Shown: positions 8,689 to 41,583 of the stretch, piece after piece
Position numbering within the stretch: the stretch's first letter is position 1
Layout: every line of letters starts with the position of its first letter
Source: an uncultured Acidobacteriota bacterium
GTDB taxonomy: Bacteria > Actinomycetota > Acidimicrobiia > Spongiisociales > ZC4RG35
Direction: 5' to 3'
DNA: 64,000 nt
Assembly: GCA_963822895.1 (NCBI GenBank)
Contig: CAWGJI010000014.1
Location: 51,337 to 115,336 of the forward strand
The notes under the pieces: generated by a model
Databases searched by the model: none
Seen by the model: the letters and a program-made list of their open reading frames with translations, nothing else
Told to the model about the DNA's origin: nothing
Position numbers and translations under genes: made by a program

Positions 8689-9270
8689 ATGAGGCCGTCG
8701 TTGCAATGGCAGGAATTCTGGTCATCGGCTGTATGCGTCGCACACGAGACGGGCGAGGGAACGCGTGGCTCTACGCTTTCGGAATGGTCCGAACATCTTG
8801 TAACCGGTGATCGCCTGCCTTCGCTTTACGGAACCGACATGGAGGGCAACGAAGTCGACATCACGGCTTCGGTAGCTGGAAGGTGGGCGGTCGTCCTGTT
8901 CTATCGAGGGGATTGGTGACCGTACTGCCGTCAACAGTTGGTTGACTTTGCGGTTCACGGTGGCCCGCTGAAGGAACTCGGTGTGCGGGTTGCAGCAGCA
9001 TCGGTCGATCCCATCGACAACGTGCGCAGCTTGAAAGAAGGCCTGCGTGTCGGCTTCCCGATGTATGCCGAGGTCGATGCGGCCGCAGTGTCTGCGGCCA
9101 CGGGGGCCCACATGCTCACCGGCAAGAAGACGTACCTCCACGCAACAGGGTTCCTCGTCAACCCCGAGGGGACGATCATCAATGCGGTCTACTCCACGGG
9201 CCCCATCGGCCGGTTCACGGCATCGGAGATCCTCCGCAAGGTCCGCTTCGAGATGGACAAGACGAGCTAG
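8689..9270 (+). CDS. PRX-like2 / AhpC-TSA-family redoxin with an in-frame TGA at the first Cys of CxxC. It is a candidate selenoprotein, or alternatively a nonsense pseudogene.
   Basis: Track ORFs 8581..8919 and 8938..9270 are in the same frame and separated only by TGA 8917-8919. Reading through gives 'VVLFYRGDW-U-PYCRQQL', the PRX_like2 'FYRG.WCP.C' active site. The start codon is uncertain: ATG ~8689 or earlier. Confidence 0.5.
8930..8946 (+). other. Hairpin 10 nt 3' of the in-frame UGA, a possible bacterial SECIS-like element.
   Basis: 'GTCAAC-AGTTG-GTTGAC' forms a perfect 6-bp stem with a 5-nt loop. Flanking 'CCG...CGG' could extend the stem. Confidence 0.3.
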
Positions 9271-9521
9271 AACAGCACCAGGCCCACGCCTCGCAGTACC
9301 GGCGGCCTGCATGGGCTCTCTCGACTTGTTCTTGGTCGGGGTGCTTGATCCTCGTTTGACCCCGGCTGTCCGACCCCCGAAATCCTCAACAGCCACAGGC
9401 GTCTTCTCTCAATCCGCACCTCTTCCGGGTCGCGTCCAATAGGCACTGGACTTTCATTACGGCTGGATCTGGTGGAGCGGACGACGGGTTTCGTACATCT
9501 CCAGGACCTAGCCTCGGGATC

Positions 9522-11200: not shown

Positions 11201-12613
11201 TCAGTAGGCGCGTGCCGCGTAGGCGATCAGCCCCTTTTCGTCGACCGTCTCGGGGCATGTGCCGTCCGGTCGTGTCAGGCACCGGATCGTGATCGCGGAT
11301 TCGGCCAGGACGGTTTCGCCGTTCTCTCCGACGATGTCATAGGGGAGGCGTGCCCAGCCGGCGGCAGCCGCTTCGCCCACCTCACCGAGGGTGGAGACGT
11401 CGTGGATTCGGGCATCGCGGAATTCGGTTGCCTCGGCGAGCAGCGATGAATGCACCTCGTCGAGCGTCGTGGTCGCGACCGCTCCTGCCTCGGCCACCGG
11501 TGTTGGCAGCTTGGTCAGCGTGTCACGTCTGACGATCGTGACCCGACCCTCGGCCAGTTCACGGGGCCCAACCTCGATGCGGAGGGGAGCACCCTTCAGT
11601 TCCCACTCGACGGTCCGGCGCCCGAAGGACTGTTCAATGCGGTCGTCGAGACGGACGCGGTGCCCCGCAGACTCGAGCTCGTTGACGATTTTCCTGGCGA
11701 CCTCGCCTGCACCGTGCTCGTCGCGCACCACCATCACAACCACCTGGATAGGCGCGATGCTGGGAGGCAGCCTCAGCCCAGCGTCATCGCCATGACACAT
11801 GATGAGACCACCGACCATGCGGGTCGAGGCCCCCCAACTCGTCTGCCATGCGTATTGCTCGGCGCCGGTGTCATCGAGGTACTTGATGTTGAATGCCTTG
11901 GCGAAGTTCTGGCCCAGCTCGTGGCTCGTTCCCATCTGCAGGGCCTTGCTATCGCGCATCATCGCTTCACAGGACGCCGTGTTGATTGCCCCGGCGAAAC
12001 GTTCGCGGGGCGTCTTGATGCCCGCGATGACCGGAATGGCCAGCACGTTCACCATGAACATCCGGTACACCTCGTGCAGGATCTTGAGCATGTAGGCCCG
12101 CGCCTCATCCTCGCTTGCATGGGCGGTGTGGCCCTCCTGCCACAGGAACTCGGTAGTCCGTAGAAAGATCCGGGGCCTCAGCTCCCAGCGCACGACATTC
12201 GCCCACTGGTTGACCAACAAGGGAAGGTCCCGGTAACTCTGAATCCACTTGGAGAAGTAGCTGTTGATGATCGTCTCGCTGGTCGGGCGGACGACAACTG
12301 GCTCTTCGAGATCCCGACCGCCGGCGTGGGTGACGACGGCCAGCTCGGGCGTGAAGCCCTCGACGTGTTCGGCCTCCCTCCTCAGCAGCTCCTCGGGGAT
12401 GAGCAGCGGGAAGTAGGCGTTGTCGGCGCCGGCCGCCTTGATGCGGAGGTCGACCTCGGCCTGCATTCGCTCCCAGATCCCGTAGCCATAAGGCCTGATG
12501 ACCATCGTTCCGCGGACGGGGCCGTTCTCAGCGAGTTCGGCCTTGGCGACGACGTCCTGGTACCAGCGGGGGAAGTCGACCTCTTGGGACGTGAGGACCC
12601 GTGCGCTCGCCAT
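11201..12613 (-). CDS. proS: Proline--tRNA ligase (archaeal/eukaryotic-type ProRS without an editing domain).
   Basis: Class II aaRS motifs are present, with 'FPRWYQDVVAKAEL' and 'IRPYGYGIWE' near the N-terminus. The length is 470 aa. Confidence 0.9.
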   Translation of the reverse strand: MASARVLTSQEVDFPRWYQDVVAKAELAENGPVRGTMVIRPYGYGIWERMQAEVDLRIKAAGADNAYFPLLIPEELLRREAEHVEGFTPELAVVTHAGGRDLEEPVVVRPTSETIINSYFSKWIQSYRDLPLLVNQWANVVRWELRPRIFLRTTEFLWQEGHTAHASEDEARAYMLKILHEVYRMFMVNVLAIPVIAGIKTPRERFAGAINTASCEAMMRDSKALQMGTSHELGQNFAKAFNIKYLDDTGAEQYAWQTSWGASTRMVGGLIMCHGDDAGLRLPPSIAPIQVVVMVVRDEHGAGEVARKIVNELESAGHRVRLDDRIEQSFGRRTVEWELKGAPLRIEVGPRELAEGRVTIVRRDTLTKLPTPVAEAGAVATTTLDEVHSSLLAEATEFRDARIHDVSTLGEVGEAAAAGWARLPYDIVGENGETVLAESAITIRCLTRPDGTCPETVDEKGLIAYAARAY

Positions 12614-12737
12614 TCACGGCGATGGTACCCAGGCGGGTCTGGGCCGCTTACACCCACTCTCACTTGCTTGGCTTCGGTGTCTCAGATTCCGAGCTGAGCT
12701 CTGCTGGTCGGCCTGACGTGATCTGACTGTGAGTCTG

Positions 12738-13055
12738 TCAGTTGAGGCCAAGAACGGTGAGGATTGCCGCGTCAACGCCCCACTGCTCCTCGGAGGTGAG
12801 ATGACCGGCCATGTCACCGAGGCGTCCGACGTCGACTGCACCCATCTGCTCCACGAGGACCCTCGTCTCGGTGCCCTCGATCTCGATTTCGGGTCGGAAT
12901 GAGGCGCTTCTTGCGCTGCTGGACGTGGGCGCGATCAGAACGACGGACCGGGAGAGTAGTGCGTCCGACTGAACGATCACGCCGAAGCGCCTTCCGTGTT
13001 GTTCATGGCCGATGCCCTTGGGAAGCCGGAGCCGGAAGACGTCACCTCGACGCAC
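12738..13055 (-). CDS. MazF/PemK-family endoribonuclease toxin.
   Basis: The motif 'RGDVFRLRLPKGIGHEQHGRRFGVIVQSD...LIAPTSS' is present. The GTG start overlaps the antitoxin stop by ~14 nt. Confidence 0.7.
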   Translation of the reverse strand: MRRGDVFRLRLPKGIGHEQHGRRFGVIVQSDALLSRSVVLIAPTSSSARSASFRPEIEIEGTETRVLVEQMGAVDVGRLGDMAGHLTSEEQWGVDAAILTVLGLN

Positions 13056-13281
13056 GCAGGCTCTCCATGAGTTCGGCAACTGCAAGCATCTCAGCACGGT
13101 CTGTTTCGTCCGCCTCGAGGGCTGCAGCCTCCGCAGCGAGAGCATCCTTGTCTTTCAGCTTCGATGCGGCTTCCACCAAGGCAGAACGGATCGCTTCCGA
13201 TCGTGACTTCCCGGTCGCCTCCAACTGTGCCAGAGCCCTCATCGCTTCGTCGTCGAGTCGAACTGAAACTGGCTGGGCCAT
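13042..13281 (-). CDS. Ribbon-helix-helix (CopG/MazE-like) antitoxin.
   Basis: 'VSVRLDDEAMRALAQLEATGKSRSEAIRSAL' is an RHH motif. The gene sits immediately upstream of the MazF-like gene and co-directional with it. Confidence 0.65.
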   Translation of the reverse strand: MAQPVSVRLDDEAMRALAQLEATGKSRSEAIRSALVEAASKLKDKDALAAEAAALEADETDRAEMLAVAELMESLRASR

Positions 13282-13473
13282 AACTCAAATCGTATCACAT
13301 TCCGTAATACAAAGGAAGATTTGTCGGAAGAGCCGCGAATCGACCCATCGTTTGTTGGCACAGACTGACCAGCCCTTCGTCCGGATCACTGCACCGATTT
13401 CACTGGGCGCCCACTCAGTTCCAAAGGTCCAGGTGGTGATGTGAGAGGAGCTTGCCGAACCCTCTTTGCCTGA

Positions 13474-13710
13474 TCAGTCCGGATCGGCCTGCCCCGAATA
13501 CTCCTCGGCGGCGCGGATCGCCTCCGAGGCTTGCTCTTCTACCCGATGCTCGATACTTGGATCGAATATCTCCTCAAAGGGGCCAGGTGTATACACCCGA
13601 GGCGGTCGTATCGTGTAGAAGATCCACCCTCGCGTCTGGGCCCATAGGGCGAGACCGTGAAGCCCGTACAGCAGGGCGACAACTGCGACAGCGATGAACA
13701 GAAACTTCAT
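13474..13710 (-). CDS. Small membrane protein.
   Basis: The N-terminal TM helix 'MKFLFIAVAVVALLYGLHGLALW' is followed by an acidic tail. Confidence 0.35.
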   Translation of the reverse strand: MKFLFIAVAVVALLYGLHGLALWAQTRGWIFYTIRPPRVYTPGPFEEIFDPSIEHRVEEQASEAIRAAEEYSGQADPD

Positions 13711-13896
13711 CTGTAATCAGGAGCGATTGTCGCAGAGGCACGTGGGAATGAGGGAATTGATCCGGCGACATCCGACTACTACCGCCCATATCTGACAGCC
13801 AGATTGGCAAGGTTCTGACCCTCGTCGCAGCCGGACCGACCCGCCTAATCCTCAACGACCACGGCGCTCTCCACCCCTACGTCCCTATTCCACTGC

Positions 13897-14286
13897 CTAC
13901 TGGATGAGTTCGGCGTTGGCTGATGCGGCTGCCAGGCCGGAGTCAGTCGTGATGATGGTTGCGTGGAGCTGATTGGCGAGCTCGATGTACAGGGCGTCGA
14001 CGAGACGGACGTTGTGATGTAGTGCCCAGGCGCCTTCGAGAAGCGGGGCGAGTAGGTGGCGGTGGAATGGTGCCTGTGCAGTGAGGGATACTCGTTCTTG
14101 CACCTGGAGTTGGCTGAGTTCTCCACCACGTTGCAGACGACCCAGGGCTGACAGGACTTCGGCGTCAAAGTGCGCCGGCACGTTGACCTCGCTGTCTTTA
14201 AGGCGCGTGGCGACGAGCTGGCCCAGTGAAGAAGCGACCAGGTGGTCGACCATCGCTGACGCATCGACTACGAGCTTGTCAGCCAC
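13897..14286 (-). CDS. vapC: PIN-domain toxin, VapC-like, copy 1.
   Basis: 'MADKLVVDASAMVDHLV' begins a PIN fold of 129 aa. It overlaps the upstream RHH gene by 8 nt. Confidence 0.75.
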   Translation of the reverse strand: MADKLVVDASAMVDHLVASSLGQLVATRLKDSEVNVPAHFDAEVLSALGRLQRGGELSQLQVQERVSLTAQAPFHRHLLAPLLEGAWALHHNVRLVDALYIELANQLHATIITTDSGLAAASANAELIQ

Positions 14287-14509
14287 CCTCGAGCTCGTCC
14301 TTGGCCGATTTCACCGCCTCGAGCACTTTGTCGTGGCTGATGCCGGGAGAGGCGAGTTCAGCGACGCGTTGTTGCCATCGTGCAAGGTTCTGTGCTGACA
14401 GCGATGACCGGATCGCTTGCTGTGTGAGGCTCGAGATGTTGAGGCCAGCAGCCTTGGCCTCCTCGGCGAGTTCGTCTGGCAGATAGACGTTGACACGTGA
14501 CATGCGCAT
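14279..14509 (-). CDS. vapB: RHH antitoxin, VapB-like, copy 1.
   Basis: The RHH motif 'MRMSRVNVYLPDELAEEAKAAGLNISSL' is present. The start is ATG ~14509 or ~14503. Confidence 0.7.
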   Translation of the reverse strand: MRMSRVNVYLPDELAEEAKAAGLNISSLTQQAIRSSLSAQNLARWQQRVAELASPGISHDKVLEAVKSAKDELEGG

Positions 14510-14639
14510 AATATACACATCAGGAGCGATCGCGAGCAACGAACCACCAGTCTGAGCTCAGCCGGGGCGCAGTTCAGATCTGAGAAGAGTATTCACATCG
14601 GCACGTGTCGCTCGGCTCAGAACCTCCAGTTTCACTGGG

Positions 14640-16290
14640 GACGGCGGATCCCTATTGCTGACCAGGTGGTCACTCTGCAGCAATGGGCATTGGCGGGGGT
14701 GCCACCCTGGTCGCGAGAATGAGACTCGGAGCTCTCGGTCTCTGACCAAGCTGACGGCTCATGCCGATCGAGACGCACATCGAATGCCGGAGGGAAGCCT
14801 GTTGTCACGCATGCAGAGTCACATGTTGATTTCTTTATGAGCCGTTCCGCCAATGCTCTTCCAGTCGGAATCGTCGGCGGGGGCATTCTCGGGCTGGCAG
14901 TCGGCCGCGAGCTCACGAAACGCAATCCGGGCGTCGAGGTCATTGTGTTCGAGAAAGAGGGCCAGCTGGCGGTCCACCAGACCGGGCACAACTCGGGTGT
15001 CGTCCATGCGGGCATCTACTACAAGCCTGGTTCCCTCAAGGCTCAGCTCTGCGCGCGGGGGAGGACCCTGCTGCGCGAGTACTGCGCCGAGCACCAGCTT
15101 CCATACGACCAATGCGGGAAGCTGGTCGTGGCCGTCGACCCATCCGAGATGGGCCGGCTGGAGAACCTGGAGAAGACTGCCTCCGAGAACGGTGTGCCCG
15201 GTCTCAGGCGGGTCGATGGCGGCGAGATCGCCGAGATCGAGCCACACGCTGCAGGGCTGGCCGCGCTTCATTCTCCGACCACGGCCATCACCGACTATGT
15301 CGCAATCGCACGATCGTATGCACGCGACATCGAGGAGGCAGGGGGGCGGATCCTGCTCTCGTCCGAGGTGACAGGCATCGAGCGCCGGGTCGGGTCGATC
15401 GAGGTGCGGACCGAACGAGATGCACGCAAGGTGGGTCGGCTGGTGGTCTGCGCCGGTCTCCAGTCAGACCGGGTCGCCGAGCCGGTGGACGGCGAGAGCG
15501 CCCCACGAATCGTCCCCTTCCGCGGGGAGTACATGAAGGTGGTCGACTCCAAGCGCGACCTGGTGCGAGGGTTGATCTATCCGGTACCCGATCCTCGCTA
15601 CCCGTTCCTGGGTGTTCATTTCACCTCAATGGTTTCCGGCGACCTCGAGGTAGGCCCCAATGCCGTGCTTGCCCTGAAACGGGAGGGCTATCGCAGACGG
15701 GACGTGAATCTCGCCGATGTCGGCAGCATCGTCTCCTGGCCGGGGTTCTGGCGCATGGCCGCATCGAATTGGCGAGCAGGCATCGAAGAAGTCTGGGGCT
15801 CGATCTCCAAACGCGCCTACATGAAGAAGGCCAGCCGGTATGTGCCCGACATCGGCCCAGAAGATGTGGTCAGGGCGAGAGCCGGGGTGCGGGCCCAAGC
15901 GCTCGATCGGGACGGGTCGTTGGTCGACGATTTCAGGATCTTCGAGAGTGACGGGGTGCTCACGGTCCGCAATGCCCCCTCGCCTGGGGCCACGTCGAGT
16001 CTCGCCATCGCCGAGTACATCGTCGATCAGATGAAGACTTCCGGTGAGCGCCATTGATGGCGCCGGAAATGTCACAGCTGGAGCCGGCATACCCTCGATC
16101 GATGGTCTTGACCCGCCAGGTGTTGGCCGATATCGACGACGGATGTTTCGATGTGGACCCGAGTCTCGAGTGGACGCGCCGCGTGCGTCCTGGGCTCCGT
16201 TTGACCCTTGTTTGACGCCGCCAAGCGGACTCAGCGGAATCCACAACCACCACACGCCTCCCCGGCCCAAACACGTCCTGGTCCACTACT
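14640..16290 (+). repeat. lhgO segment, copy 1 of a dispersed ~1.65-kb duplication.
   Basis: It is about 97% identical to 36720..38335 and carries a ~40-bp indel after the stop codon. Confidence 0.8.
14837..16057 (+). CDS. lhgO: L-2-hydroxyglutarate oxidase (FAD-dependent), copy 1.
   Basis: The FAD-binding 'VGIVGGGILGLAVGREL' and the LhgO/YgaF-family length of 406 aa fit this call. Confidence 0.7.
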   Translation: MSRSANALPVGIVGGGILGLAVGRELTKRNPGVEVIVFEKEGQLAVHQTGHNSGVVHAGIYYKPGSLKAQLCARGRTLLREYCAEHQLPYDQCGKLVVAVDPSEMGRLENLEKTASENGVPGLRRVDGGEIAEIEPHAAGLAALHSPTTAITDYVAIARSYARDIEEAGGRILLSSEVTGIERRVGSIEVRTERDARKVGRLVVCAGLQSDRVAEPVDGESAPRIVPFRGEYMKVVDSKRDLVRGLIYPVPDPRYPFLGVHFTSMVSGDLEVGPNAVLALKREGYRRRDVNLADVGSIVSWPGFWRMAASNWRAGIEEVWGSISKRAYMKKASRYVPDIGPEDVVRARAGVRAQALDRDGSLVDDFRIFESDGVLTVRNAPSPGATSSLAIAEYIVDQMKTSGERH

Positions 16291-16675
16291 GGATGAGTTC
16301 GGCGTTGGCTGATGCGGCTGCCAAACCGGAGTCAGTCGTGATGATGGTTGCGTGGAGCTGATTGGCGAGCTCGATGTACAGGGCGTCGACGAGACGGACG
16401 TTGTGATGTAGCGCCCAGGCGCCTTCGAGAAGCGGGGCGAGCAGGTGGCGGTGGAACGGTGCCTGTGCAGTGAGGGATACTCGTTCTTGCACCTCGAGTT
16501 CGCTGAGTCCTCCACCACGTTGCAGACGACCCAGCGCTGACAGGACTTCGGCGTCAAAGTGCGCCGGCACGTTGACCTCGCTGTCTCTGAGGCGTGTGGC
16601 GACGAGCTGACCCAGCGAAGAAGCGACCAGGTAGTCGACCATCGCTGACGCGTCGACTACGAGCTTGTCAGCCAC
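16286..16675 (-). CDS. vapC: PIN-domain toxin, VapC-like, copy 2.
   Basis: It differs from copy 1 at 6 of 129 residues. Confidence 0.75.
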   Translation of the reverse strand: MADKLVVDASAMVDYLVASSLGQLVATRLRDSEVNVPAHFDAEVLSALGRLQRGGGLSELEVQERVSLTAQAPFHRHLLAPLLEGAWALHHNVRLVDALYIELANQLHATIITTDSGLAAASANAELIQ

Positions 16676-16898
16676 CCTCGAGCTCGTCCTTGGCCGATTT
16701 CACCGCCTCGAGGACCTTGTCGTGGCTGATGCCGGGAGAGCTGAGTTCAGCAACGCGTTCTTGCCATCGTGAGAGGTTCTGTGCTGCCAAGGATGATCGA
16801 ATCGCCTGCTGTGTGAGGCTCGAGATGTTGAGGCCAGCCGCCTTGGCCTCCTCGGCGAGTTCGTCTGGCAGATAGATGTTGACACGTGACATGCGCAT
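16668..16898 (-). CDS. vapB: RHH antitoxin, VapB-like, copy 2.
   Basis: The motif 'MRMSRVNIYLPDELAEEAKAAGLNISSL' is present. Confidence 0.7.
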   Translation of the reverse strand: MRMSRVNIYLPDELAEEAKAAGLNISSLTQQAIRSSLAAQNLSRWQERVAELSSPGISHDKVLEAVKSAKDELEGG

Positions 16899-17018
16899 AG
16901 TATACACATAGAGAAAGCGATCACGAGCAACGAACCACGAGTCTGAGCTCAGCCGCAAGCACCTAGTCCGGGTGCACTTCGCTGCCTCAACAGCACCTGG
17001 TTCATTGCCTAGTCGACT

Positions 17019-17618
17019 TCAGGGATCGAGCGATTTGCGCAGCGCACGCACTGCAGCCAGCACCCCCTCGTAGGTTTCCAAGAGTCTTGGCCCCCCGCGC
17101 AACAGAGTTCGCCGATGTATGTCGGCTTCTATCCAATCCCAACTGGCACGGTCGTATGTTGCAAAACACAGTCGCACAGCCTCGACGAACGTGACATCGG
17201 TGCCATCGGTTGCCTGTGTGATCCGATCAACGATCAAAGACTCGAGCGTGATGACTTCGACGGCCTCAGTCTCATTCAGTTTCACGGGAGCCCATTCGCC
17301 ATCGACTACTGATCCTGGAAACTCGACAGGCCAGCGTTCGCCGTCACTGAACGTGTACGCGAAATGGTCGCCCTGGATCTGCTCGAACCCGAGATCCCTC
17401 AGAGCCTGGCGATCCTCCTCATCTAGGTATGCACACATGTCGACGTCGGTCGGTCGATACACGCGGGTGTGCAGGTTGACGGCTGCCCCGCCAACGAGGA
17501 CAGCCGTTCCTTTGAGTGCGTAATCCGCTGCCTTGGCAAGCCAGAGGGATCGGTCGATTTCGTCGCTGTTTCGGTCGGCCTCAGCGAGCGCTCGTCTTGC
17601 TCTCCCTAAGTCTCTCAA
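17019..17618 (-). CDS. Nucleotidyltransferase-fold (Pol-beta-like) protein, a putative toxin or abortive-infection effector.
   Basis: 'GTAVLVGGAAVNLHTRVYRPTDVDMCAY' fits the hG[GS]...DhD nucleotidyltransferase signature. Its start overlaps the upstream HTH gene by 4 nt. Confidence 0.4.
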   Translation of the reverse strand: MRDLGRARRALAEADRNSDEIDRSLWLAKAADYALKGTAVLVGGAAVNLHTRVYRPTDVDMCAYLDEEDRQALRDLGFEQIQGDHFAYTFSDGERWPVEFPGSVVDGEWAPVKLNETEAVEVITLESLIVDRITQATDGTDVTFVEAVRLCFATYDRASWDWIEADIHRRTLLRGGPRLLETYEGVLAAVRALRKSLDP

Positions 17619-17983
17619 CGTCGCGTGGCGAGCGACTCACGCTCAATCTGTGTATCAAGACCGAGCATTTCCTTGCGCTCAAGTCGAGCCACAGGGTCAG
17701 AAGGCCCGATACCCGTACGCGCAAGCATGTCAGCAGAGCGCTGCGCCCACACCTTGATCTCACTCAGTGAGGTCTCATTCCGCCGAGGGGACTCGAGGTC
17801 GCTGAGGCTTCCTCCGTAGCACGACAGAAGCTCGAGGATTGTCGAGATTCGAGGGTCGGCTTTGCCCGTTTCGATATTGCATATCTGAGACCGGCTGATT
17901 CCAGTTGTCTTGAAGACATCAGTGATAGACATGCGATTCAGCTCTCGCATCTGTCGCAACTTGTAGGTGTTGAGAGATGTCAT
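17615..17983 (-). CDS. XRE-family helix-turn-helix regulator, a putative antitoxin/repressor.
   Basis: The HTH_3 motif 'MSITDVFKTTGISRSQICNIETGKADPRISTILEL' is present. Confidence 0.7.
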   Translation of the reverse strand: MTSLNTYKLRQMRELNRMSITDVFKTTGISRSQICNIETGKADPRISTILELLSCYGGSLSDLESPRRNETSLSEIKVWAQRSADMLARTGIGPSDPVARLERKEMLGLDTQIERESLATRR

Positions 17984-17987
17984 GCCT

Positions 17988-18027
17988 GTTAGTTAATACA
18001 CTAACGCTCGTTAGTCAATACACTAAC
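17988..18027. promoter_or_regulatory. Tandem palindromic operator at the 5' end of the XRE gene.
   Basis: 'GTTAGTTAATACACTAAC' and 'GTTAGTCAATACACTAAC' are two 18-bp copies, each with inverted arms GTTAG/CTAAC. They lie in an AT-rich patch directly abutting the ATG at 17983. Confidence 0.6.
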
Positions 18028-18061
18028 AGTCCCGACCCCGATGCATCACCGGCAAGAACTC

Positions 18062-19141
18062 CTAGGCGGGCTGTGCGAACTCGCTCCGGGCGGATTCAGC
18101 AAGCCGCAGGCCGTGCCCGAAGGCCTCCGGTAACAAGGCATGCCCGTCACGGAATTGGATCGGGGTCTCCAGGAGGTCGTTGTATGAGAGGAAGGAATAC
18201 TCCAGCCAGCTGACTTCGGGGAGGGCGGCGGCGATGTGCACTCCGATCTCGAAGTCACTGTTCCCCAACGAAACCGGGATGCCGTGCTCAGCAGCGAGCC
18301 ATCCGATCTTCATGGCGTCGTTGATCGAACCGTGGATATTGAGGACGTCGACGGCCCGGTTTTCGATCAGCTGGCGCTTCCCGGATAGGTCCAAGTACTC
18401 CCCGCTGTTGATGAGAGTGAATGGCACGGCTTTGGAGATGGTCCTGAGCCCGACGAAGTCATCTCGCAGACACGGATCCTCGATCCAATACAGGGGGATG
18501 CCGGACTCGTGATATGCGTGCAGTCTGCGGATCGCCTCTTTGGGTGACCACGCCTCATTGGCGTCGGCCATCAGCTGAGACTCGGGGCCTACGGCCTCCT
18601 GGACCAGTCGGAGTCGCCGGATATCCCAGGCCAGATCCGGGTGCCCGACCTTGACTTTGAAGGCCGAGAAGCCGGCATCACGGGCTTTCGAGTAGAAAGC
18701 CGACACCTCTTCATCCGTCATGTGGTATTCCAGACCGCTTGCATAGGCGGGGACCTTGTCGCGCTTGCCTCCGAGCAGCCGATAGAGGGGTAGTTCGAGG
18801 ATTTGGCCCTGCAGATCCCAGACAGCCTGTTCGACGCTCGGGTAGAAGACCGATTGCTTCACGTTTCCACCGCGTGGACGTTCGAGTCTGTTGGCCCAAG
18901 AGAATGGATCGGAGCCGATCAGCTCCTCGGCGATCTCTCGTTGAAACCGAACTTCGAGCTCCATCAGTGATGGAAGCGGATCGGTGACTGTGTGAAAGAA
19001 GCCCGTTCCGATGCGCCCGGCGTCGTCTTCGAGCTCGAGGACACCCAAGGACAGATGTGTGGCTGAAATCTGCGAATCACCGATTGTTCGGTCGAGTTCC
19101 ACCGCAAACCGGGTCAGCGTGTATTTCTCGATGCGGTGCAA
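18062..19141 (-). CDS. Enolase-superfamily dehydratase (mandelate racemase / muconate lactonising enzyme family).
   Basis: It is 359 aa long and carries the conserved KxK, Mg-ligand Asp/Glu and His-Asp pattern of this family. Confidence 0.7.
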   Translation of the reverse strand: MHRIEKYTLTRFAVELDRTIGDSQISATHLSLGVLELEDDAGRIGTGFFHTVTDPLPSLMELEVRFQREIAEELIGSDPFSWANRLERPRGGNVKQSVFYPSVEQAVWDLQGQILELPLYRLLGGKRDKVPAYASGLEYHMTDEEVSAFYSKARDAGFSAFKVKVGHPDLAWDIRRLRLVQEAVGPESQLMADANEAWSPKEAIRRLHAYHESGIPLYWIEDPCLRDDFVGLRTISKAVPFTLINSGEYLDLSGKRQLIENRAVDVLNIHGSINDAMKIGWLAAEHGIPVSLGNSDFEIGVHIAAALPEVSWLEYSFLSYNDLLETPIQFRDGHALLPEAFGHGLRLAESARSEFAQPA

Positions 19142-19311
19142 GAGCGCGGTCGTCCTTTCTGGAGTTGGTCGTGATGCGTCAAGGAGAGCGCCTTGACAAG
19201 GGTAACAGGCATCACTACGGTGGTACTAGTTACGGTACTAGTTCCATACATCCCAAACTGTAGCACGGCTTGCCTGGCGTGACTATGGAGGAGCAGTCGG
19301 AGAGAGACGGC

Positions 19312-20352
19312 ATGGTGAGAAAGCCGACGATCAGAGATGTGGCCAAAGAAGCAGGCGTCTCTGTCGCGACGGTCTCCAGAGTCATCAACGACAAGCCTGA
19401 TGCGGCCGACGGGACGCGGAAGAAGGTCGAGGAGGCGATCACCAGACTGGGCTATGCGAGGAGCAGCCAGTGGGAGCAGCTGACCACGGGCAAAAGCCGG
19501 GCGATCTCGCTTCACTTCCCGTACGCCGACGGCAACGCAAGCCATGTGTATCTCGACTTCATCACCGGAGCGACCGCCGCTTGCGAGGAGCGCGACTATC
19601 GGCTTCACCTGATCACCCGCCCCATCGAGGAAGCAGACCTCCTGGACCTGTATCGGTCCAAGAAGAGCGATGGCTCGATCCTCATGAAGGTGCAACTGAA
19701 CGACTGGCGCGTCGATCTCCTTCGTCAAGCGGGGCTCCCCTTCGTCATGATCGGCCACACCGAGGAAAGCGCCGGAGCGAGCTTCATCGACTACGACTTC
19801 GAAGCCGCCATGCACATGGGGATGAACCACCTGTATGCCCTGGGGCACCGCAACATCGGCTACGTCTCGGCGATGCCGTCCCAACACAGTCAGCACGGCC
19901 CCACCGTTCGGGCACTTCGTGCCTACAAGGCGGCGTGCGAGAGGATGTCACTGCCCTTGCTCAGCTATGAGACCGACCAGAGCCTGAGGAACATCCGACT
20001 TCTCACGGTCAGCATGCTCAACGAGCACCCCGAGCTCACGGCTCTGATGACCATGAGGGAGATGGTCGAGGCTGCGCTTTATGGCGCCGTTCACGACGCG
20101 GGCCGTCGCATACCCGATGACATCTCGGTGCTTGGGCTCGCCAGCCCGCAAGGCCCCGAGCTGACGAGCCCGGCTCTCACTGCCCTCGATTTTCCCGCAT
20201 GGTCGATGGCATACGAGGCCGGCAGCATGCTCATCGACCAGTTGGAAGGGGTCGACTCAACGGTCAGAGAGATCCTCAGAGAGCCGACTTTGACCGTTCG
20301 CGACAGCACCGCTCCGGTTCAACGGTCGGAACGTCACGAGTTGTCCCCATGA
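19312..20352 (+). CDS. LacI-family transcriptional regulator.
   Basis: The HTH 'TIRDVAKEAGVSVATVSRVIN' and a periplasmic-binding-fold C-terminus are present. The alternative start is 19270. Confidence 0.85.
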   Translation: MVRKPTIRDVAKEAGVSVATVSRVINDKPDAADGTRKKVEEAITRLGYARSSQWEQLTTGKSRAISLHFPYADGNASHVYLDFITGATAACEERDYRLHLITRPIEEADLLDLYRSKKSDGSILMKVQLNDWRVDLLRQAGLPFVMIGHTEESAGASFIDYDFEAAMHMGMNHLYALGHRNIGYVSAMPSQHSQHGPTVRALRAYKAACERMSLPLLSYETDQSLRNIRLLTVSMLNEHPELTALMTMREMVEAALYGAVHDAGRRIPDDISVLGLASPQGPELTSPALTALDFPAWSMAYEAGSMLIDQLEGVDSTVREILREPTLTVRDSTAPVQRSERHELSP

Positions 20353-35438: not shown

Positions 35439-36491
35439 GTGAGCGTTGGCGAAGTGATGCTCCGCCTCGATCCGGAGTGGGGGCGGGTACGGACGGCCCG
35501 ACATTTCAGGGTCACCGAAGGCGGAGGGGAATACAACGTCTCTCGTGCCCTTCGCAAGGTCTTCGGCATGAGGACGGCAGTGGTCACGGCACTGGTCGAC
35601 AACGAGGTCGGTCATCTCGTGGAGGACCTGATGATGACTGGTGGAGTCGACCTACGTCACGTCAAGTGGGTTCCTCATGACGGGATCGGGCTCGAGTCGC
35701 GGGTGGGACTCAACTTCACCGAGAAGGGTTTCGGTATCCGTCCCGCACTTGGTGTGTCCGACCGGGCCAACACCGCCGTCTCGCAACTCGTGCCGGGCGA
35801 CATCGACTGGAACCAACTCTTTGACGTGGAGGGAGTGCGTTGGCTTCACACAGGCGGCATCTTCGCTGCCTTGTCCGAGACGACTGCGGAGGTCGCCCTC
35901 GAAGCCATGCAAGCTGCGCACGCTGCCGGCACGGTTGTCTCTTACGACCTCAACTATCGACCGTCGCTGTGGAAGCCTCGAGGTGGCCGAGCCCGTGCCA
36001 TCGAAGTGAACCGCATGCTGGCTCCACACGTCGACGTCATGATCGGCAACGAGGAGGATTTCACGGCAGCGCTCGGATTCGAAGTGCCGGAGCTCGACGA
36101 GGAGATCACCAGTCTCGACCCCTCGGCGTTCAAGGCGATGATCGGGGACGTCATCGCCCGGTTTCCCAATCTGGAGATGGTCGCCACGACCATGCGAAAC
36201 GCGAAGTCAGCCGGTTTCAACGACTGGGGCGCAATCCTCTATGCAGACGGAATGTTCCATGAGTCCCGTCTTCGTCCCGACCTGGAGATATTCGACCGGG
36301 TCGGCGGTGGCGACGGTTTCGCCAGCGGCATGATCTGGGCGCTTCTCGACGGTCGCCACGTTTCCGAAGCGGTCGAAGTCGGGGCTGCCCATGGCGCGTT
36401 GACCATGACGACACCGGGCGACACGTCGATGGTGACCGTGGATGAGGTGATGAGGGCGGTCACCGCCCACGGCGCTCGGGTGGTGCGATGA
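35439..36491 (+). CDS. kdgK: PfkB-family sugar kinase (2-dehydro-3-deoxygluconokinase-like).
   Basis: The PfkB motifs 'GGGEYNV' and 'DRVGGGDGFASG' are present, with a GTG start. Confidence 0.75.
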   Translation: MSVGEVMLRLDPEWGRVRTARHFRVTEGGGEYNVSRALRKVFGMRTAVVTALVDNEVGHLVEDLMMTGGVDLRHVKWVPHDGIGLESRVGLNFTEKGFGIRPALGVSDRANTAVSQLVPGDIDWNQLFDVEGVRWLHTGGIFAALSETTAEVALEAMQAAHAAGTVVSYDLNYRPSLWKPRGGRARAIEVNRMLAPHVDVMIGNEEDFTAALGFEVPELDEEITSLDPSAFKAMIGDVIARFPNLEMVATTMRNAKSAGFNDWGAILYADGMFHESRLRPDLEIFDRVGGGDGFASGMIWALLDGRHVSEAVEVGAAHGALTMTTPGDTSMVTVDEVMRAVTAHGARVVR

Positions 36492-36719
36492 AACCCGCCA
36501 CCCATTCGCAGGTGGGGATGCCACCTCGCCGCCTGGCCGAACGCCGCCTCCCCAACGATGCCCGGTGCAACCTCGTCCGAGGCTCGGGCCAGAGAGCCCT
36601 ACACGCTGTACAGCTGGAGTGGTGCCTGACCGTGACTTGTCACCTAACTACCTAACGGCCCGAATCCCCAACAACCACGGTCTTCACAAGGCAGCACGCC
36701 CTGATTCGTTGAGGGGGGA

Positions 36720-38335
36720 CCGCTGTCGCTGACGAGGTGGTCACGCTGTGGCAACAGCATTGGCGGGGGTGCCACTCTGGTCGCGAGAATGAGACTCGGA
36801 GCTCTCGGTCCCTGACCAAGCTGAAGGCTCATGCCGATCGAGACGCAAATCGAATGCCGGAGGGAAGCCTGTTGTCACGCATGCAGAGTCACATGTTGAT
36901 TTCTTCATGAGCCGTCCCGCCAATGCTCTTTCAGTGGGAATCATCGGCGGGGGCATTCTCGGGCTGGCAGTCGGCCGCGAGCTCACGAAACGCAATCCGG
37001 GCATCGAGGTCGTCGTCTTCGAAAAAGAGAGACGGCTGGCGGTCCACCAGACCGGGCACAATTCCGGTGTCGTCCACGCCGGCATCTACTACAAGCCTGG
37101 TTCCCTCAAGGCTCAGCTCTGCGCGCGGGGGAGGACCCTGCTCCGCGAATACTGCGCCGAGCACCAGCTTCCATACGACCAATGCGGGAAGCTGGTCGTG
37201 GCCGTCGACCCATCCGAGATGGGCCGGCTGGAGAACCTGGAGAAGACTGCCTCCGAGAACGGTGTGCCCGGTCTCAGGCGGGTCGATGGCGGCGAGATCG
37301 CCGAGATCGAGCCACACGCTGCAGGGCTGGCCGCGCTTCATTCTCCGACCACGGCCATCACCGACTATGTCGCAATCGCACGATCGTATGCACGCGACAT
37401 CGAGGAGGCAGGGGGGCGGATCCTGCTTTCGTCCCAGGTGACAGGCATCGAGCGCCGGGTCGGGTCGATCGAGGTGCGGACCGAACGAGATGCGCGCAAG
37501 GTGGGTCGGCTGGTGGTCTGCGCGGGTCTCCAGTCAGACCGGGTCGCCGAGCCGGTGGACGGCGAGAGCGCCCCACGAATTGTCCCTTTCCGAGGGGAGT
37601 ACATGAAGGTGGTCGACTCCAAGCGCGACCTGGTGCGAGGATTGATCTATCCAGTACCCGATCCTCGCTACCCGTTCTTGGGCGTTCATTTCACCTCCAT
37701 GGTTTCCGGCGACCTGGAGGTCGGCCCCAATGCCGTGCTTGCGCTGAAACGCGAGGGCTATCGCAGACGGGACGTGAATCTCGCAGATGTTGGCAGCATC
37801 GTCTCTTGGCCGGGGTTTTGGCGTATGGCTGCATCGAATTGGCGAGCAGGCATCGAAGAAGTCTGGGGCTCGATCTCCAAACGCGCCTACATGAAGAAGG
37901 CCAGTCGCTATGTGCCCGAGATCGGCCCAGACGATGTGGTCAGGGCGAGAGCCGGGGTGCGGGCCCAAGCGCTCGATCGGGACGGGTCGTTGGTCGACGA
38001 TTTCAGGATCTTCGAGAGCGATGGGGTGCTCACGATCCGCAATGCCCCATCGCCGGGGGCCACATCGAGTCTCGCCATCGCCGAGTACATCGTCAATCAG
38101 ATGAAAGACTTCCGGTGAGCGCCATCGATGGTCTTGGCCCCCCGGGTGGTGGGCGATACCGACGACGGATATTTCGATGTGGACACGAGTCTCGAAAGGG
38201 CGGCACTCGTGGCGTCCTGACTACGGAGTCGATTTGAAATCGTCGCCGGTTTGACCGTTGTTTGACGCCGCCAACCGGACTCAGCGGAATCCACAACAAC
38301 CACAGCAGCCCCCGGCCCAACATGTCCTAGTTCGT
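36720..38335 (+). repeat. lhgO segment, copy 2.
   Basis: It is homologous to 14640..16290. Confidence 0.8.
36907..38118 (+). CDS. lhgO: L-2-hydroxyglutarate oxidase, copy 2.
   Basis: It is a 403-aa near-identical paralogue of 14837..16057. Confidence 0.7.
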   Translation: MSRPANALSVGIIGGGILGLAVGRELTKRNPGIEVVVFEKERRLAVHQTGHNSGVVHAGIYYKPGSLKAQLCARGRTLLREYCAEHQLPYDQCGKLVVAVDPSEMGRLENLEKTASENGVPGLRRVDGGEIAEIEPHAAGLAALHSPTTAITDYVAIARSYARDIEEAGGRILLSSQVTGIERRVGSIEVRTERDARKVGRLVVCAGLQSDRVAEPVDGESAPRIVPFRGEYMKVVDSKRDLVRGLIYPVPDPRYPFLGVHFTSMVSGDLEVGPNAVLALKREGYRRRDVNLADVGSIVSWPGFWRMAASNWRAGIEEVWGSISKRAYMKKASRYVPEIGPDDVVRARAGVRAQALDRDGSLVDDFRIFESDGVLTIRNAPSPGATSSLAIAEYIVNQMKDFR

Positions 38336-38342
38336 CGGCGCG

Positions 38343-39668
38343 TTACGCCCGGATGGCGACCAGATCCTGGCCGGGTCGGACGGTCAGACGTCGAGTCACG
38401 AGAAAGGTCGTCCTTGGGCCGATGCCACGGAGGTCTACGGTTCCTCTCGGTTCGTAGGCGAAGTCCCCTCGGGTCAGGGCTCGGGTCTCCTCGCTGACCT
38501 GGATTCGTCCCGGGACTCCCGACGATTCGAGCCGGGCGGCGATGTTGACCGTCGTTCCCCAGACGTCATATGCGAATTTGCGGGTGCCGATCACGCCCCC
38601 GGCCACAGGGCCAGAGTGAACCCCGATCCGTAGTGCCAGCCCGGGGAAGTGCTCGGTCGAGCCCGTGCAAGTCTGCATGGCCACGGCCAGGTCGACTACG
38701 CGGGTTGCATGATCGGGAAGCGGGTCGGGGAGACCTCCCACTGCCATGTATGCGTCGCCGATCGTTTTGATCTTCTCCAGGCCCCGCTCGGCGACGAGGT
38801 CGTCGAACATTGTGAAGAGCCCGTTCAACATGGTGATGACGTCGTCGGCGGCCATCTCGGAGGTCATCGCCGTGAAGCCGACGATGTCGGCAAACAAGAT
38901 GGTGGCGTTGGGAAAATCGTCGGCGATTGGGTTCTCGCCCGCTCGCAGACGTTTCGACACCGCCGCCGGCAGTACGTTGAGAAGGAGACGCTCGGACTCG
39001 GAGCGTTCTACTTCGATGGCTGCGCTCTGCTCTTCGATCACAAGCCGCTGATGCCATACCCGGCGTCGGTTTCGCTCGATGAGACGGAGACCGATGAGAC
39101 TGCCGATCGAAGCTGCTGCGAGGAAGAAGGCATCCAGCACGAGACCCTCCGGCACGTCATATGTTGCCCAGACCACGACGAACCCGACGGCGATCACAGC
39201 CGTGCGCACGAAGGCATAGATGAACCGGGTGCGAGAAACGAACCCGAACACGTACAGCAGCATGATCCCGGATACCGCAAACCCATGGAGTGCGTCGCCG
39301 GCGGCGGCGAGGAGGAGGATCACGAGCCCATTGGCCGACGTGAGCAGGGATGCCAAGCCATGCTGGCGGTTCATGGTCTTCGCCCACGGCGCGACGACGA
39401 AGCAGACCAAGCCGACTACAGCCATCGCTCCACCGACCAGGGCGGAGAGTCCGGCAGAGATATCTGTTCCGTGGGGGATGAGGATGGCCGCCAACACCCA
39501 AAGCAAGACCGTTGCGCCGGTGATGATGCGATAGCCCCCAAGACCCGTCTCGCCCTCCTCGCGCTGAAACTCCTCCTCCAACACGGGATCTTCGAATCTG
39601 AGGCTGAAAGACGCGAGCGTCCCCCGCTCGCTGATGTCAGGCATCGGTGAAGGATACGACGCGACCAC
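38343..39668 (-). CDS. Membrane-anchored class III adenylate/guanylate cyclase.
   Basis: Six N-terminal TM helices are followed by a cyclase homology domain ('ILFADIVGFT...KTIGDAYMAVGG'). Confidence 0.85.
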   Translation of the reverse strand: MVASYPSPMPDISERGTLASFSLRFEDPVLEEEFQREEGETGLGGYRIITGATVLLWVLAAILIPHGTDISAGLSALVGGAMAVVGLVCFVVAPWAKTMNRQHGLASLLTSANGLVILLLAAAGDALHGFAVSGIMLLYVFGFVSRTRFIYAFVRTAVIAVGFVVVWATYDVPEGLVLDAFFLAAASIGSLIGLRLIERNRRRVWHQRLVIEEQSAAIEVERSESERLLLNVLPAAVSKRLRAGENPIADDFPNATILFADIVGFTAMTSEMAADDVITMLNGLFTMFDDLVAERGLEKIKTIGDAYMAVGGLPDPLPDHATRVVDLAVAMQTCTGSTEHFPGLALRIGVHSGPVAGGVIGTRKFAYDVWGTTVNIAARLESSGVPGRIQVSEETRALTRGDFAYEPRGTVDLRGIGPRTTFLVTRRLTVRPGQDLVAIRA

Positions 39669-39717
39669 CCGGATTGGCTCGTCCCTTTCGGGATCGTGCC
39701 GCCATCGTCAGCCCTGG

Positions 39718-39756
39718 TTGACGTAAGTTACGTTTTCAGTTAACGTAGCTTACGTT
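39718..39756. promoter_or_regulatory. PadR promoter with two palindromic operators.
   Basis: The two sites are 'ACGTAAgTTACGT' and 'TAACGTAgctTACGTTA'. 'TTGACG-N17-TAACGT' is a possible −35/−10 pair. The second site ends at the ATG at 39757, so the transcript is probably leaderless. Confidence 0.5.
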
Positions 39757-40224
39757 ATGGCTCGGGTTTTCAGACGAGGTGAGCTGAAGGAGGCGATCGT
39801 GGTCGTGTTGGCCAAGATCGGCGAGGCTCATGGGTACGCCATCATGGGCGAACTCGAAGCCCGGGTCGATGGCGGTTGGAAAGCGAGCCCGGGAGCGATC
39901 TACCCGGCCCTGATGGCCCTGGTCGAATCGGGCCATGTGAGCTTCGAGGATCGCGACGACTTGCGCATCTATGCACTGACCGATGTCGGACGCAAGGCCG
40001 CCGCTTCTTCGAGCTGGGGGAACCGTTGGAGCGCCCTCACTGCCAAAGCCGAGAGGGCAGACGACCGTGTTGCGGTTGGTTCCCTGCTCGACGAATTCGC
40101 TTCGACATCTCCGCTTCGGCGTCGTCTCGCCGGTTCGGAACAGCAACGAGAAATCGAGTCCATTCTCGAAAAGGCTCATGCCGAGATCGAGGAAACACTC
40201 GAGGAAGGAAACGAAGATGGATGA
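39757..40224 (+). CDS. PadR-family transcriptional regulator.
   Basis: The PadR wHTH 'AIVVVLAKIGEAHGYAIMGELE...GAIYPALMALVESG' is present. Confidence 0.85.
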   Translation: MARVFRRGELKEAIVVVLAKIGEAHGYAIMGELEARVDGGWKASPGAIYPALMALVESGHVSFEDRDDLRIYALTDVGRKAAASSSWGNRWSALTAKAERADDRVAVGSLLDEFASTSPLRRRLAGSEQQREIESILEKAHAEIEETLEEGNEDG

Positions 40225-40492
40225 GTTCGGAGAAATGGCGGCGCGGGAACGAGAGGCCAGGCGGATAGCCCGTCGGCAGTGGTTCTGGCTTCACTTCGCG
40301 GTGTTCGCGACGACCCAGGCGTTCTTGATCATCATCTGGGCGCTGAGCTCAGCCACCTACCCGTGGTTCATATTCCCGCTATTCGGCTGGGGGATTCTGA
40401 TCGCCGCCCACGCTGTCTTCGCCTTCGTGGTCAAGTCACCGGAGGAGATCATGGTCGAGCGTGAGGCAAGGGGACCAGGTGAACCACGGTGA
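40219..40492 (+). CDS. 2TM-domain small membrane protein.
   Basis: The motif 'RRQWFWLHFAVFATTQAFLIIIW...WFIFPLFGWGILIAAHA' is present. Its start overlaps the PadR stop. Confidence 0.65.
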
Positions 40493-41310: not shown

Positions 41311-41439
41311 CCGGAGGGTGCCGTCCCGGCGACATGCAGAGTGGCGACGTCGAAGTCAATGCCGACCCGCACGCCCTCCAACCTGTCACCCAGGGACCTG
41401 ACGCCCTTGATGAGAAGTCAGGCAGGACCACCGCTCGCA

Positions 41440-41583
41440 CTACTGCCGGTCGTGCGGCGGCCGACCCAGAAAGTCCCGTATGTCACCCAGTGATCTAACG
41501 CCCTTGATGAGAAACCAGATAATGATGATCGTGGCGATCACGCCAAGTCCTGCGGCGACGATTCCGATGATTTGCACGTCCAT
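41440..41583 (-). CDS. Small hydrophobic protein of 47 aa.
   Basis: 'MDVQIIGIVAAGLGVIATIIIIWFLIKGVRSLGD...' has one TM helix. An RBS 'GAGAGG' lies upstream. Confidence 0.3.
   Translation of the reverse strand: MDVQIIGIVAAGLGVIATIIIIWFLIKGVRSLGDIRDFLGRPPHDRQ

Follow-up and report, generated by a model that had tools for sequence, protein, structure and literature searches.

Two copies of a vapBC cassette were probably placed separately beside lhgO-1 in an uncultured Acidimicrobiia genome

The window, by which we mean the whole 64,000-nt stretch of DNA that was analyzed, belongs to an uncultured Acidimicrobiia genome and contains, at 12.7 to 18.0 kb, a small variable spot rich in toxin−antitoxin (TA) genes downstream of proS. 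Two vapBC operons lie there on either side of an lhgO gene, a further lhgO copy is present at 36.7 to 38.3 kb, and copies of an ~85-nt repeat, here called e, adjoin both kinds of unit. The features are as follows.

9343–9427 (+): e0, between an AhpC/TSA-like ORF and a DUF2867/NmrA gene (nhmmer E 6e-15)
12738–13281 (−): mazEF-like TA pair, toxin and antitoxin
12738–13145 (−): PemK/MazF toxin of that pair (PF02452, 1.4e-16), likely start near 13055
13042–13281 (−): RHH antitoxin of that pair (PF01402, 1.4e-6)
13474–13710 (−): small ORF of 78 aa with a hydrophobic N terminus and no family match
13813–13892 (+): e1 (nhmmer E 3e-11), 3′ end (…TTCCACT) adjoining the vapBC-1 cassette
13897–14575 (−): vapBC-1 cassette, comprising vapC-1, vapB-1, and an upstream region of ~65 nt
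13897–14286 (−): vapC-1, PIN protein of 129 aa
14279–14509 (−): vapB-1, RHH/CcdA-like protein of 76 aa
14640–16286 (+): lhgO-1 repeat unit, with ~190 nt of upstream region, the coding sequence 14837–16057 (406 aa), and a 3′ tail closing in e2
16199–16286 (+): e2, the 3′ end of the lhgO-1 unit (nhmmer E 9e-21)
16286–17007 (−): vapBC-2 cassette, comprising vapC-2, vapB-2, and an upstream region to about 17007
16286–16675 (−): vapC-2
16668–16898 (−): vapB-2
17019–17618 (−): orf199, 199 aa, nucleotidyltransferase fold
17615–17983 (−): XRE-HTH gene (Pfam HTH_3), overlapping orf199 by 4 nt
36624–36709 (+): e4, directly left of the lhgO-2 unit (nhmmer E 2e-15)
36710–38335 (+): lhgO-2 repeat unit, with the coding sequence 36907–38118 (403 aa) and a 3′ tail closing in e3
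38249–38335 (+): e3, ending the lhgO-2 tail 8 nt short of the stop of an adenylate/guanylate cyclase gene

A preliminary description of this DNA had called a PIN toxin, an RHH/CcdA antitoxin, and LhgO, and these calls were correct. VapC-1 and VapC-2 match the PIN family PF01850 above its gathering score (E 4e-9 and 2e-9, residues 6 to 121 of 129), and residues D8, E43, D97, and D115, which we take to be the active-site acidic residues of the PIN domain, are invariant in 9 of 9 aligned sequences. The vapB gene (76 aa) lies directly upstream of vapC with an 8-nt overlap; its product matches CcdA (PF07362) at 2e-8 and RHH_5 weakly, and the region upstream of vapBC-1 holds the palindrome CTGAGCTCAG. 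A promoter and terminator scan of 13.4 to 17.2 kb gave nothing above chance. In toxin length, the four acidic residues, the upstream antitoxin, the gene overlap, and the upstream palindrome, the operon resembles type II VapBC systems, and NCBI names the homologues VapC family toxin; it differs from them in that no NCBIfam model matches either VapB or VapC, and toxin activity is predicted here from sequence. Several paralogous copies per genome are also found in the vapBC sets of Mycobacterium tuberculosis; those paralogues are old and divergent, whereas the two copies in the window are 95 to 96% identical at the protein level. The two LhgO proteins score 552.3 (LhgO-1) and 552.9 bits (LhgO-2) against the equivalog NF008726 (cutoff 299) over profile positions 3 to 389 of 389.

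Both repeat families were recovered by self-BLAST of the window and by a repeat finder, and judged from these alignments their lengths and identities are far beyond chance. The vapBC copies (13897–14564 and 16286–16955) are 94.2% identical over 671 columns, with 35 mismatches and 3 gaps, and a weaker similarity continues past a 14-nt indel to about 14575 and 16968. Positions 17008–17027 are filler between the vapBC-2 cassette and the orf199 breakpoint. Five residues, not the six counted earlier, separate VapC-1 from VapC-2, and VapB-1 and VapB-2 also differ at 5. With dN/dS values of 0.15 for vapC and 0.17 for vapB, positive selection on VapBC was rejected and accelerated divergence left no sign, and selection lends no support to the earlier suggestion that the pairs are diverging in specificity. 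A third VapC paralogue is encoded elsewhere on the source contig, as a 90% VapC cluster includes three sequences from this one 734,539-bp contig.

The second lhgO copy, already noted in the preliminary description, was confirmed, but its identity to lhgO-1 is about 94 to 95% instead of ~97%: 14657–16060 and 36728–38131 are 95.4% identical over 1405 columns, and the 3′ tails (16098–16279 and 38124–38328) are 85 to 89% identical with 45-nt and 22-nt indels between them. Both genes are under purifying selection (dN/dS 0.10). The lhgO-1 unit is found in a related strain (locus L090, see below), and the lhgO-2 unit is kept at 98.8 to 98.9% in strain L081. The two appear to be older dispersed paralogues of an ~1.6-kb unit bounded by e. 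A four-way comparison shows that in the 3′ half lhgO-1 differs from the L090 copy at 0 to 1 positions per 150 nt and from lhgO-2 at 6 to 9, while in the 5′ half (alignment columns 300 to 749) it lies nearer lhgO-2, with 0 to 6 differences per 150 nt. L090 lhgO also retains both indel segments, one of which is missing in lhgO-1 and the other in lhgO-2. By its pattern of similarity, lhgO-1 seems to be a recombinant mosaic that arose through gene conversion or through recombination between strains. The shared ~1.6-kb unit, regulatory flanks included, and the mosaic lhgO-1 resemble gene conversion of paralogues, but the mosaic also fits homologous recombination between strains or assembly effects.

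The e repeat is a previously unreported dispersed element in the window, with five same-strand copies within 29 kb against 0 expected by chance. Its core, AATCCNCAACNACCAC, is matched exactly in e1 and e4 and with 1 mismatch in e0. Each vapBC cassette in the window adjoins an e copy, and at the second joint the last bases of e2 overlap the vapC-2 stop codon, with only 2 nt (CT) common to e2 and vapC-2. A short junction motif, ACGTCC..T.C, had been proposed to recur at the repeat ends; the motif was confirmed, though as the 3′ terminus of e. The composition of e is C-rich and G-poor. The copies share no consistent reading frame, with indels in their alignment, and no significant or conserved secondary structure (folding against shuffles, z −1.4 to +1.3; 4 weak pairs in the consensus). 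Rfam gave no match to e at the gathering threshold across the whole window, and the 16-nt core met only chance matches in viral contigs, none scoring above 18 bits with the e HMM. A suspected e remnant at 14576–14642 was dropped; the HMM detected none there. Random illegitimate insertion leaves unexplained why both cassettes abut the same e end.

The two vapBC sites were compared with two contigs, L090 and L211, of a single related-strain MAG (GCA_049799655.1). On L090 the order is proS, mazEF, small ORF, lhgO-1, and e, with vapBC on neither side; it is collinear with window positions 12337–13759 (95.5%) and 14684–16287 (93.9%). The 78-aa ORF is the last common gene ahead of the vapBC-1 segment, and 173 nt of unrelated sequence replaces window positions 13760–14683. 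Beyond the e end, L090 continues into a zinc-ADH gene that the window lacks. L211 is 99.75% identical to window positions 17028–20249 (orf199 to lacI) and has DUF1003/EAL genes where the window has vapBC-2. Because the strain is near-identical to the window on both sides, in the 3′ half of lhgO-1 and again to the right of vapBC-2, the latter appears as a strain-specific segment of ~0.74 kb lying exactly between breakpoints 16287 and 17028. A clean empty-site allele was found at neither vapBC site in this strain, the second site holding other genes over at least 2.9 kb; the absence of vapBC from it may reflect loss there, and polarity is not fixed.

Other genomes carry vapBC without lhgO. Over 672 bp, the copy of the more distant L082 (contig_22023) matches vapBC-2 at 99.1%, with 0 differences at alignment columns 200 to 599, although, all compared sequences being metagenome assemblies, polishing with reads of a paralogue or of a co-occurring strain could inflate this identity or mimic mosaicism. 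Other segments and genes that the L082 genome shares with the window are only 79 to 86% identical. The L083 copy, 91 to 92% identical, has an MFS gene on one side and a rhodanese gene on the other. All four vapBC copies compared as DNA stop at the vapC stop codon and carry the upstream palindrome, and their promoter-side ends fall less than ~50 nt apart. When JGI metagenomes were scanned with the VapC alignment, six short contigs encoded relatives at 70 to 77% amino acid identity but gave no information on context; viral contigs yielded no VapC relative, and plasmids yielded no DNA match to the cassette and VapC homologues only at 45 to 50% amino acid identity. Lone copies in other contexts, the third copy, and the related strain free of vapBC suggest that vapBC is an autonomous cassette of ~0.7 kb (~0.68 to 0.72 kb), exchanged between genomes. 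For lhgO, a scan of GTDB species with LhgO-1 gave 80 loci, with a top amino acid identity of 83%; none is syntenic with either lhgO locus of the window, and in none of these 80 loci from other species (0/80) does a window-type vapBC stand beside lhgO.

On this evidence, the two vapBC cassette copies were probably placed separately beside lhgO-1 and were not made together with lhgO, while the lhgO pair would stem from an older duplication. Each cassette, which ends at the vapC stop codon, would bring vapB and vapC together with a promoter/operator region of its own and would be exchanged among co-occurring Acidimicrobiia genomes, being present here in at least three copies. From what is known of the family, VapC would be a PIN-domain RNase with its four acidic residues intact, VapB would neutralize it and probably repress the operon at CTGAGCTCAG, and the pair may persist by addiction as a selfish module. 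Placement would most likely have proceeded through illegitimate or short-homology recombination, and the cassette may then have spread via homologous recombination of its flanks. The lhgO-1 repeat does end at 16286, where the vapBC-2 repeat ends at the vapC-2 stop codon, as reported previously; the repeat ends would coincide because the lhgO unit closes with e2 and the cassette begins there.

A different possibility is that recombination favors the 3′ end of e, where vapBC and lhgO modules would be inserted or exchanged through short homology with an e-like cassette end or by a recombinase encoded elsewhere. Consistent with such targeting, both vapBC copies begin 0 to 4 nt from the same e end (…TCCACT), e4 and e3 bracket lhgO-2, the same e end precedes three different sequences (in the lhgO-1, lhgO-2, and L090 contexts), and the ~20 nt past the vapC stop in L082 resemble it (CGACCTAGTCC vs. 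CGTCCTGGTCC). We nevertheless hold this to be unlikely: no e is detectable beside vapBC in L082 or L083 (p 0.13 to 0.99), and the e0–e1 span encloses the essential proS, so that e copies do not generally delimit mobile cassettes. Moreover, e shows neither a conserved hairpin nor an attC-like fold, the scanned window ORFs contain no integrase domain, and the pattern comprises two junctions only, while a transcript-end element (a Rho site, for instance) would account just as well for the composition of e. There is at best a slim chance that in these Acidimicrobiia e marks insertion or swap sites of small modules (vapBC, lhgO) that were joined at one e end without an integron, IS, or phage.

The preliminary description had instead proposed a tandem duplication of an ~2.4-kb [vapBC + lhgO] unit, with the second lhgO lost so that the order vapBC–lhgO–vapBC remained and the 36.7-kb lhgO dispersed separately. 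This order, the shared orientation of both vapBC copies, the similar divergence of the repeat pairs (94% and 95%), and the exact stop of the lhgO-1 repeat where the vapBC-2 repeat starts would all agree with it. The arrangement in the related strain speaks against such a unit, since lhgO-1 occupies the same locus there without vapBC, and identity is ~99.8% on the two sides of vapBC-2. The cassette also occurs alone elsewhere with the same end at the vapC stop, in one case at 99.1% in a genome otherwise ~79 to 86% identical, and again on the same contig. Furthermore, the lhgO unit ends at the identical nucleotide before vapBC-2, the cyclase gene, and the ADH gene; with three right-hand contexts, the coincidence of ends therefore requires no duplication joint. 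No trace of a second lhgO remains to the right of vapBC-2, positions 14576–14640 have no counterpart there, and from 17028 rightward the sequence is orthologous to L211. We consider this duplication improbable, and the idea of a TA pair duplicated along with a metabolic gene is not borne out, as vapBC and lhgO are unlinked in L090, L082, L083, and the 80 lhgO loci. Least probable of all is an assembly artifact, in which false paralogues or mosaics would come from strain variants of a single vapBC and/or a single lhgO locus that were joined end to end or wrongly polished: the window comes from a 734-kb metagenome contig, co-occurring strains of 95 to 99.8% identity exist, short-read MAG contigs break at repeats (L081 begins at window position 36757; L090 and L211 are 4 to 5 kb), and the joints of lhgO-1 with vapBC-1 and vapBC-2 are spanned by the source contig alone, but the flanks differ on both sides of every copy, the independent MAG contigs L090 and L081 confirm the contexts of lhgO-1 and lhgO-2, a near-identical vapBC-2 allele lies on another contig, and the copy differences, unlike error-driven ones, are mostly synonymous (dN/dS 0.10 to 0.17) and leave all ORFs intact.

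Separately placed cassettes accord with TA loci as portrayed by Makarova et al. 2009 (PMC2701414) and Chopra et al. 2013 (PMC3879964), namely selfish mobile modules of two genes that spread through horizontal transfer. Like these, vapBC here is a minimal operon-sized unit in unrelated chromosomal contexts, far more alike between genomes than their background, strain-variable, and situated at synteny breakpoints; it differs in its uniform ends (the vapC stop, and a promoter side within ~50 nt) and in that no plasmid, phage, integron, or transposon carrier was detected. An identity as IS, transposon, or MITE was rejected: around the cassettes only short, chance-level inverted matches were seen, the junction sequences hold no target-site duplication, and Pfam scans of ~50 window ORFs gave no transposase, integrase, or recombinase domain. 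Integron cassettes are likewise small promoter-bearing TA units with precise ends and an adjoining ~85-nt repeat in one orientation. However, e lacks the imperfect-palindrome attC structure and R″/R′ cores and also flanks essential genes, the copies in other genomes lack e, and no integrase is encoded in the scanned ORFs; an attC-like reading of e was rejected, with no hairpin better than shuffles.

The behavior of vapBC is ordinary for such cassettes and leaves current views of TA biology unchanged. The locus does offer a clean natural example of an operon-sized vapBC moving between uncultured, co-occurring Acidimicrobiia with no recognizable vehicle, in one case placed exactly at a synteny breakpoint of near-identical strains, and its lhgO paralogues exemplify reshuffling by recombination. 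For annotation, it illustrates that multi-copy TA cassettes around ordinary genes mimic segmental duplication until strains are compared. Loss or amplification of lhgO-1 could also be brought about by the direct vapBC repeats, which lie 2.4 kb from each other.

Further TA genes surround these units. The mazEF-like pair is kept in L090. On the other side, the AF2 model of orf199 (pLDDT 93.6) has MenT1 toxin (Rv0078A) and nucleotidyltransferases as its top Foldseek matches, with TM-scores of only 0.40 to 0.55, and orf199 has no Pfam or PADLOC match. Its partner is a small XRE protein and not an AbiEi/MenA-type antitoxin, but the modeled nucleotidyltransferase fold, a G-G…D-x-D motif, and the overlapping HTH gene upstream point to a probable MenAT/AbiE-like TA pair.

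Self-comparison of the window reproduced the direct repeats reported in the preliminary description. Two VapBC toxin-antitoxin (TA) cassettes, vapBC-1 (13897-14564) and vapBC-2 (16286-16955), flank lhgO-1 and are 94.2% identical, while lhgO-1 (14657-16060) shares 95.4% identity with its paralogue lhgO-2 (36728-38131); identity falls to 85-89% in the lhgO tails (16098-16279 vs 38124-38328), which contain indels of 45 and 22 nt. The repeat ends do coincide, the lhgO-1 repeat stopping at 16286, the final base of the vapC-2 stop codon. The lhgO copies, first put at ~97% identity, measured 94-95%, and five residues, not six, differ between the VapC copies; VapB-1 and VapB-2 also differ at five. The gene calls were borne out: both 129-aa proteins (VapC-1, VapC-2) are PIN domains, both 76-aa proteins encoded upstream of vapC match CcdA/RHH models, and both oxidases match the LhgO equivalog (552 bits vs a cutoff of 299). 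The observation is thus confirmed, while its interpretation as a tandem [vapBC+lhgO] unit is unsupported. Probably, two copies of a horizontally exchanged vapBC cassette were placed separately on the two sides of lhgO-1, an older paralogue, at a variable site rich in TA genes.

The vapBC cassette also occurs by itself. Three of the seven members of the VapC 90% cluster come from the source contig, the third lying outside the window and being 98% identical to VapC-1. Two long contigs of one metagenome assembly (ERZ25039549), L082 (contig 22023, a more distant genome) and L083, each carry the vapBC module alone, with an Rrf2 regulator gene on one side and unknown genes on the other in L082 and between MFS and rhodanese genes in L083. 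The L082 cassette is 99.1% identical to vapBC-2, with zero differences in alignment columns 200-599, and the remaining segments shared by L082 and the window are 79-86% identical. In all four copies the cassette ends at the vapC stop codon and the palindrome CTGAGCTCAG lies within ~70 nt upstream of vapB; vapBC-2 and L083 have ~50 nt of further upstream homology in common. The cassettes showed neither terminal inverted repeats nor target duplications, and the plasmid and viral collections held no match; these properties agree with the long-standing description of TA loci as two-gene modules that are mobile and selfish (PMC2701414, PMC3879964).

The motif ‘ACGTCC..T.C’, which had been assigned to the repeat junctions, does recur, but it forms the 3′ terminus of a dispersed repeat of ~85 nt, here called e. 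The following copies were located with nhmmer (E-values 3e-11 to 3e-21).

Copies of the e repeat in the window
9343-9427, + strand, e0
13813-13892, + strand, e1
16199-16286, + strand, e2, tail of the lhgO-1 unit
36624-36709, + strand, e4, precedes lhgO-2
38249-38335, + strand, e3, tail of the lhgO-2 unit

A 16-nt core, AATCCNCAACNACCAC, occurs 5 times vs 0 expected by chance, and the 5′ end of e bears two TTGAC-like half-sites 11 nt apart. Searches of e for an Rfam match, conserved structure or a reading frame found none. On the + strand, e is strongly C-rich and G-poor, which might suit a Rho-dependent transcript end. A weak possible further copy lies at 42016-42056. Both vapBC copies start 0-4 nt from the 3′ end of an e copy, as would be expected if e directed the insertion of modules. 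Because no e is detectable beside vapBC in L082 or L083, we do not take this adjacency as evidence of a targeting system, and e-directed insertion is unlikely.

Three short-read MAG contigs represent the close relatives. L081 (JBAPRW010000090.1, from GCA_049281315.1) matches window 36757-47224 at 98.8% identity, with lhgO-2 present and the right flank shared. L090 (from GCA_049799655.1) is collinear with the proS-mazEF-small ORF segment at 95.5%, and its small ORF is followed directly by a 406-aa lhgO, the lhgO-1 ortholog, with vapBC absent both before and after it; beyond the e end stands a zinc-ADH gene absent from the window. Across the 3′ half of lhgO-1, each 150-nt interval shows 0-1 differences between L090 and the window. 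L211, from the same MAG, matches 17028-20249 (a 199-aa gene, XRE, an enolase-family gene and lacI) at 99.75% and then runs into DUF1003 and EAL genes. Given the L211 match and the near-identity of L090 in the 3′ half of lhgO-1, breakpoints 16287 and 17028 exactly bound vapBC-2 plus 20 nt of filler, and the outer side of each is ~99.8% identical to a strain carrying other genes there. A tandem duplication of [vapBC+lhgO] followed by truncation would account for direct repeats with coinciding ends, but it does not predict this pattern and is distinctly improbable; the pattern is what a cassette coming and going independently would be predicted to leave. An assembly artefact, by which the repeats themselves would be spurious, is very improbable.

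Both vapBC copies look functional and conserved. The dN/dS is 0.15 for vapC (dS 0.12) and 0.17 for vapB (dS 0.21), and the PIN acidic residues of VapC are invariant in the alignment; these ratios give no sign of the accelerated change implied by paralogues diverging in specificity. TA-like pairs are dense at 12.7-18.0 kb.

TA-like pairs at 12.7-18.0 kb
12738-13281, mazEF-like pair
13897-14564 and 16286-16955, vapBC-1 and vapBC-2
17019-17983, − strand, XRE-HTH gene and 199-aa gene, 4-nt overlap

The 199-aa protein has no match in Pfam or PADLOC. It is confidently modelled (pLDDT 93.6) as a nucleotidyltransferase fold, the closest structure being the MenT1 toxin of M. tuberculosis. All ~246 homologues (E <= 1e-5) lack a name or are labelled ‘hypothetical’, and the small number assigned to a taxon come from Acidimicrobiia or Actinomycetota MAGs. 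The pair, with a GC content of 57% vs 62% for the window, is probably an uncharacterized MenAT/AbiE-like TA family. Among ~50 window ORFs, Pfam identified ordinary chromosomal genes (proS, sugar ABC transporters, LacI, enolase-superfamily enzymes, cyclases, sigma factor) and no recombinase or transposase domains. Records of the window proteins trace to a single metagenome contig of 734,539 bp, and the top LhgO match among GTDB species representatives (83% aa) is in an Acidimicrobiia MAG.

The L090 lhgO holds both indel segments, one of which is missing from lhgO-1 and the other from lhgO-2, so all three derive from one ~1.6-kb unit, whose end point is the same to the nucleotide in each of three distinct right-hand contexts. 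Site patterns pair lhgO-1 with L090 and lhgO-2 with L081 in the 3′ half, where most of the 55 sites of this kind are located; over the 5′ half lhgO-1 is nearer lhgO-2, without a single difference in alignment columns 450-599. These patterns show lhgO-1 to be a mosaic and point to gene conversion or inter-strain recombination, with the caveat of assembly mis-polishing. Judged by a dN/dS of 0.10 (dS 0.14 overall, 0.20 in the 3′ half), both lhgO copies are maintained. Their stops differ via a 1-nt indel (C termini …QMKTSGERH vs …QMKDFR), and the tails 16054-16198 and 38119-38248 show reciprocal 45-nt/22-nt deletions vs the L090 ortholog. L081 begins at window 36757, the exact start of the three-way lhgO homology, an indication that two lhgO copies exist in this strain as well and broke its assembly; beyond its position 10477 (window 47224) the gene contents diverge. 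L082 5043-7753 matches window 39718-41315, 52962-53444, and 36124-36382, with PadR-2TM-Sensor, a 147-aa gene and a pfkB-kinase gene fragment side by side and the lhgO-2 and cyclase genes missing; therefore the lhgO-2 neighborhood is also a variable region.

Two further features were seen in the window. An AhpC/TSA-like (peroxiredoxin/redoxin) ORF at 8690-9270 (+) has a single in-frame TGA (8917-8919) at the exact place of the first Cys of a W-C-P-Y-C redox motif (…FYRGDW*PYCRQQ…). Read with Cys there, it weakly matches AhpC, PrxQ, and PrxU models; a hairpin (−21 kcal/mol, z −1.2) starts ~10 nt downstream of the TGA, and no SECIS family match was found. The ORF is a candidate for a selenocysteine (UxxC) protein, or else a pseudogene. 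The first ORF, with lamin-tail and endonuclease/exonuclease/phosphatase domains, contains a 272-nt direct repeat (1-272 and 520-791; 96% identity, 519-nt period) suggestive of a recent domain duplication within the ORF.
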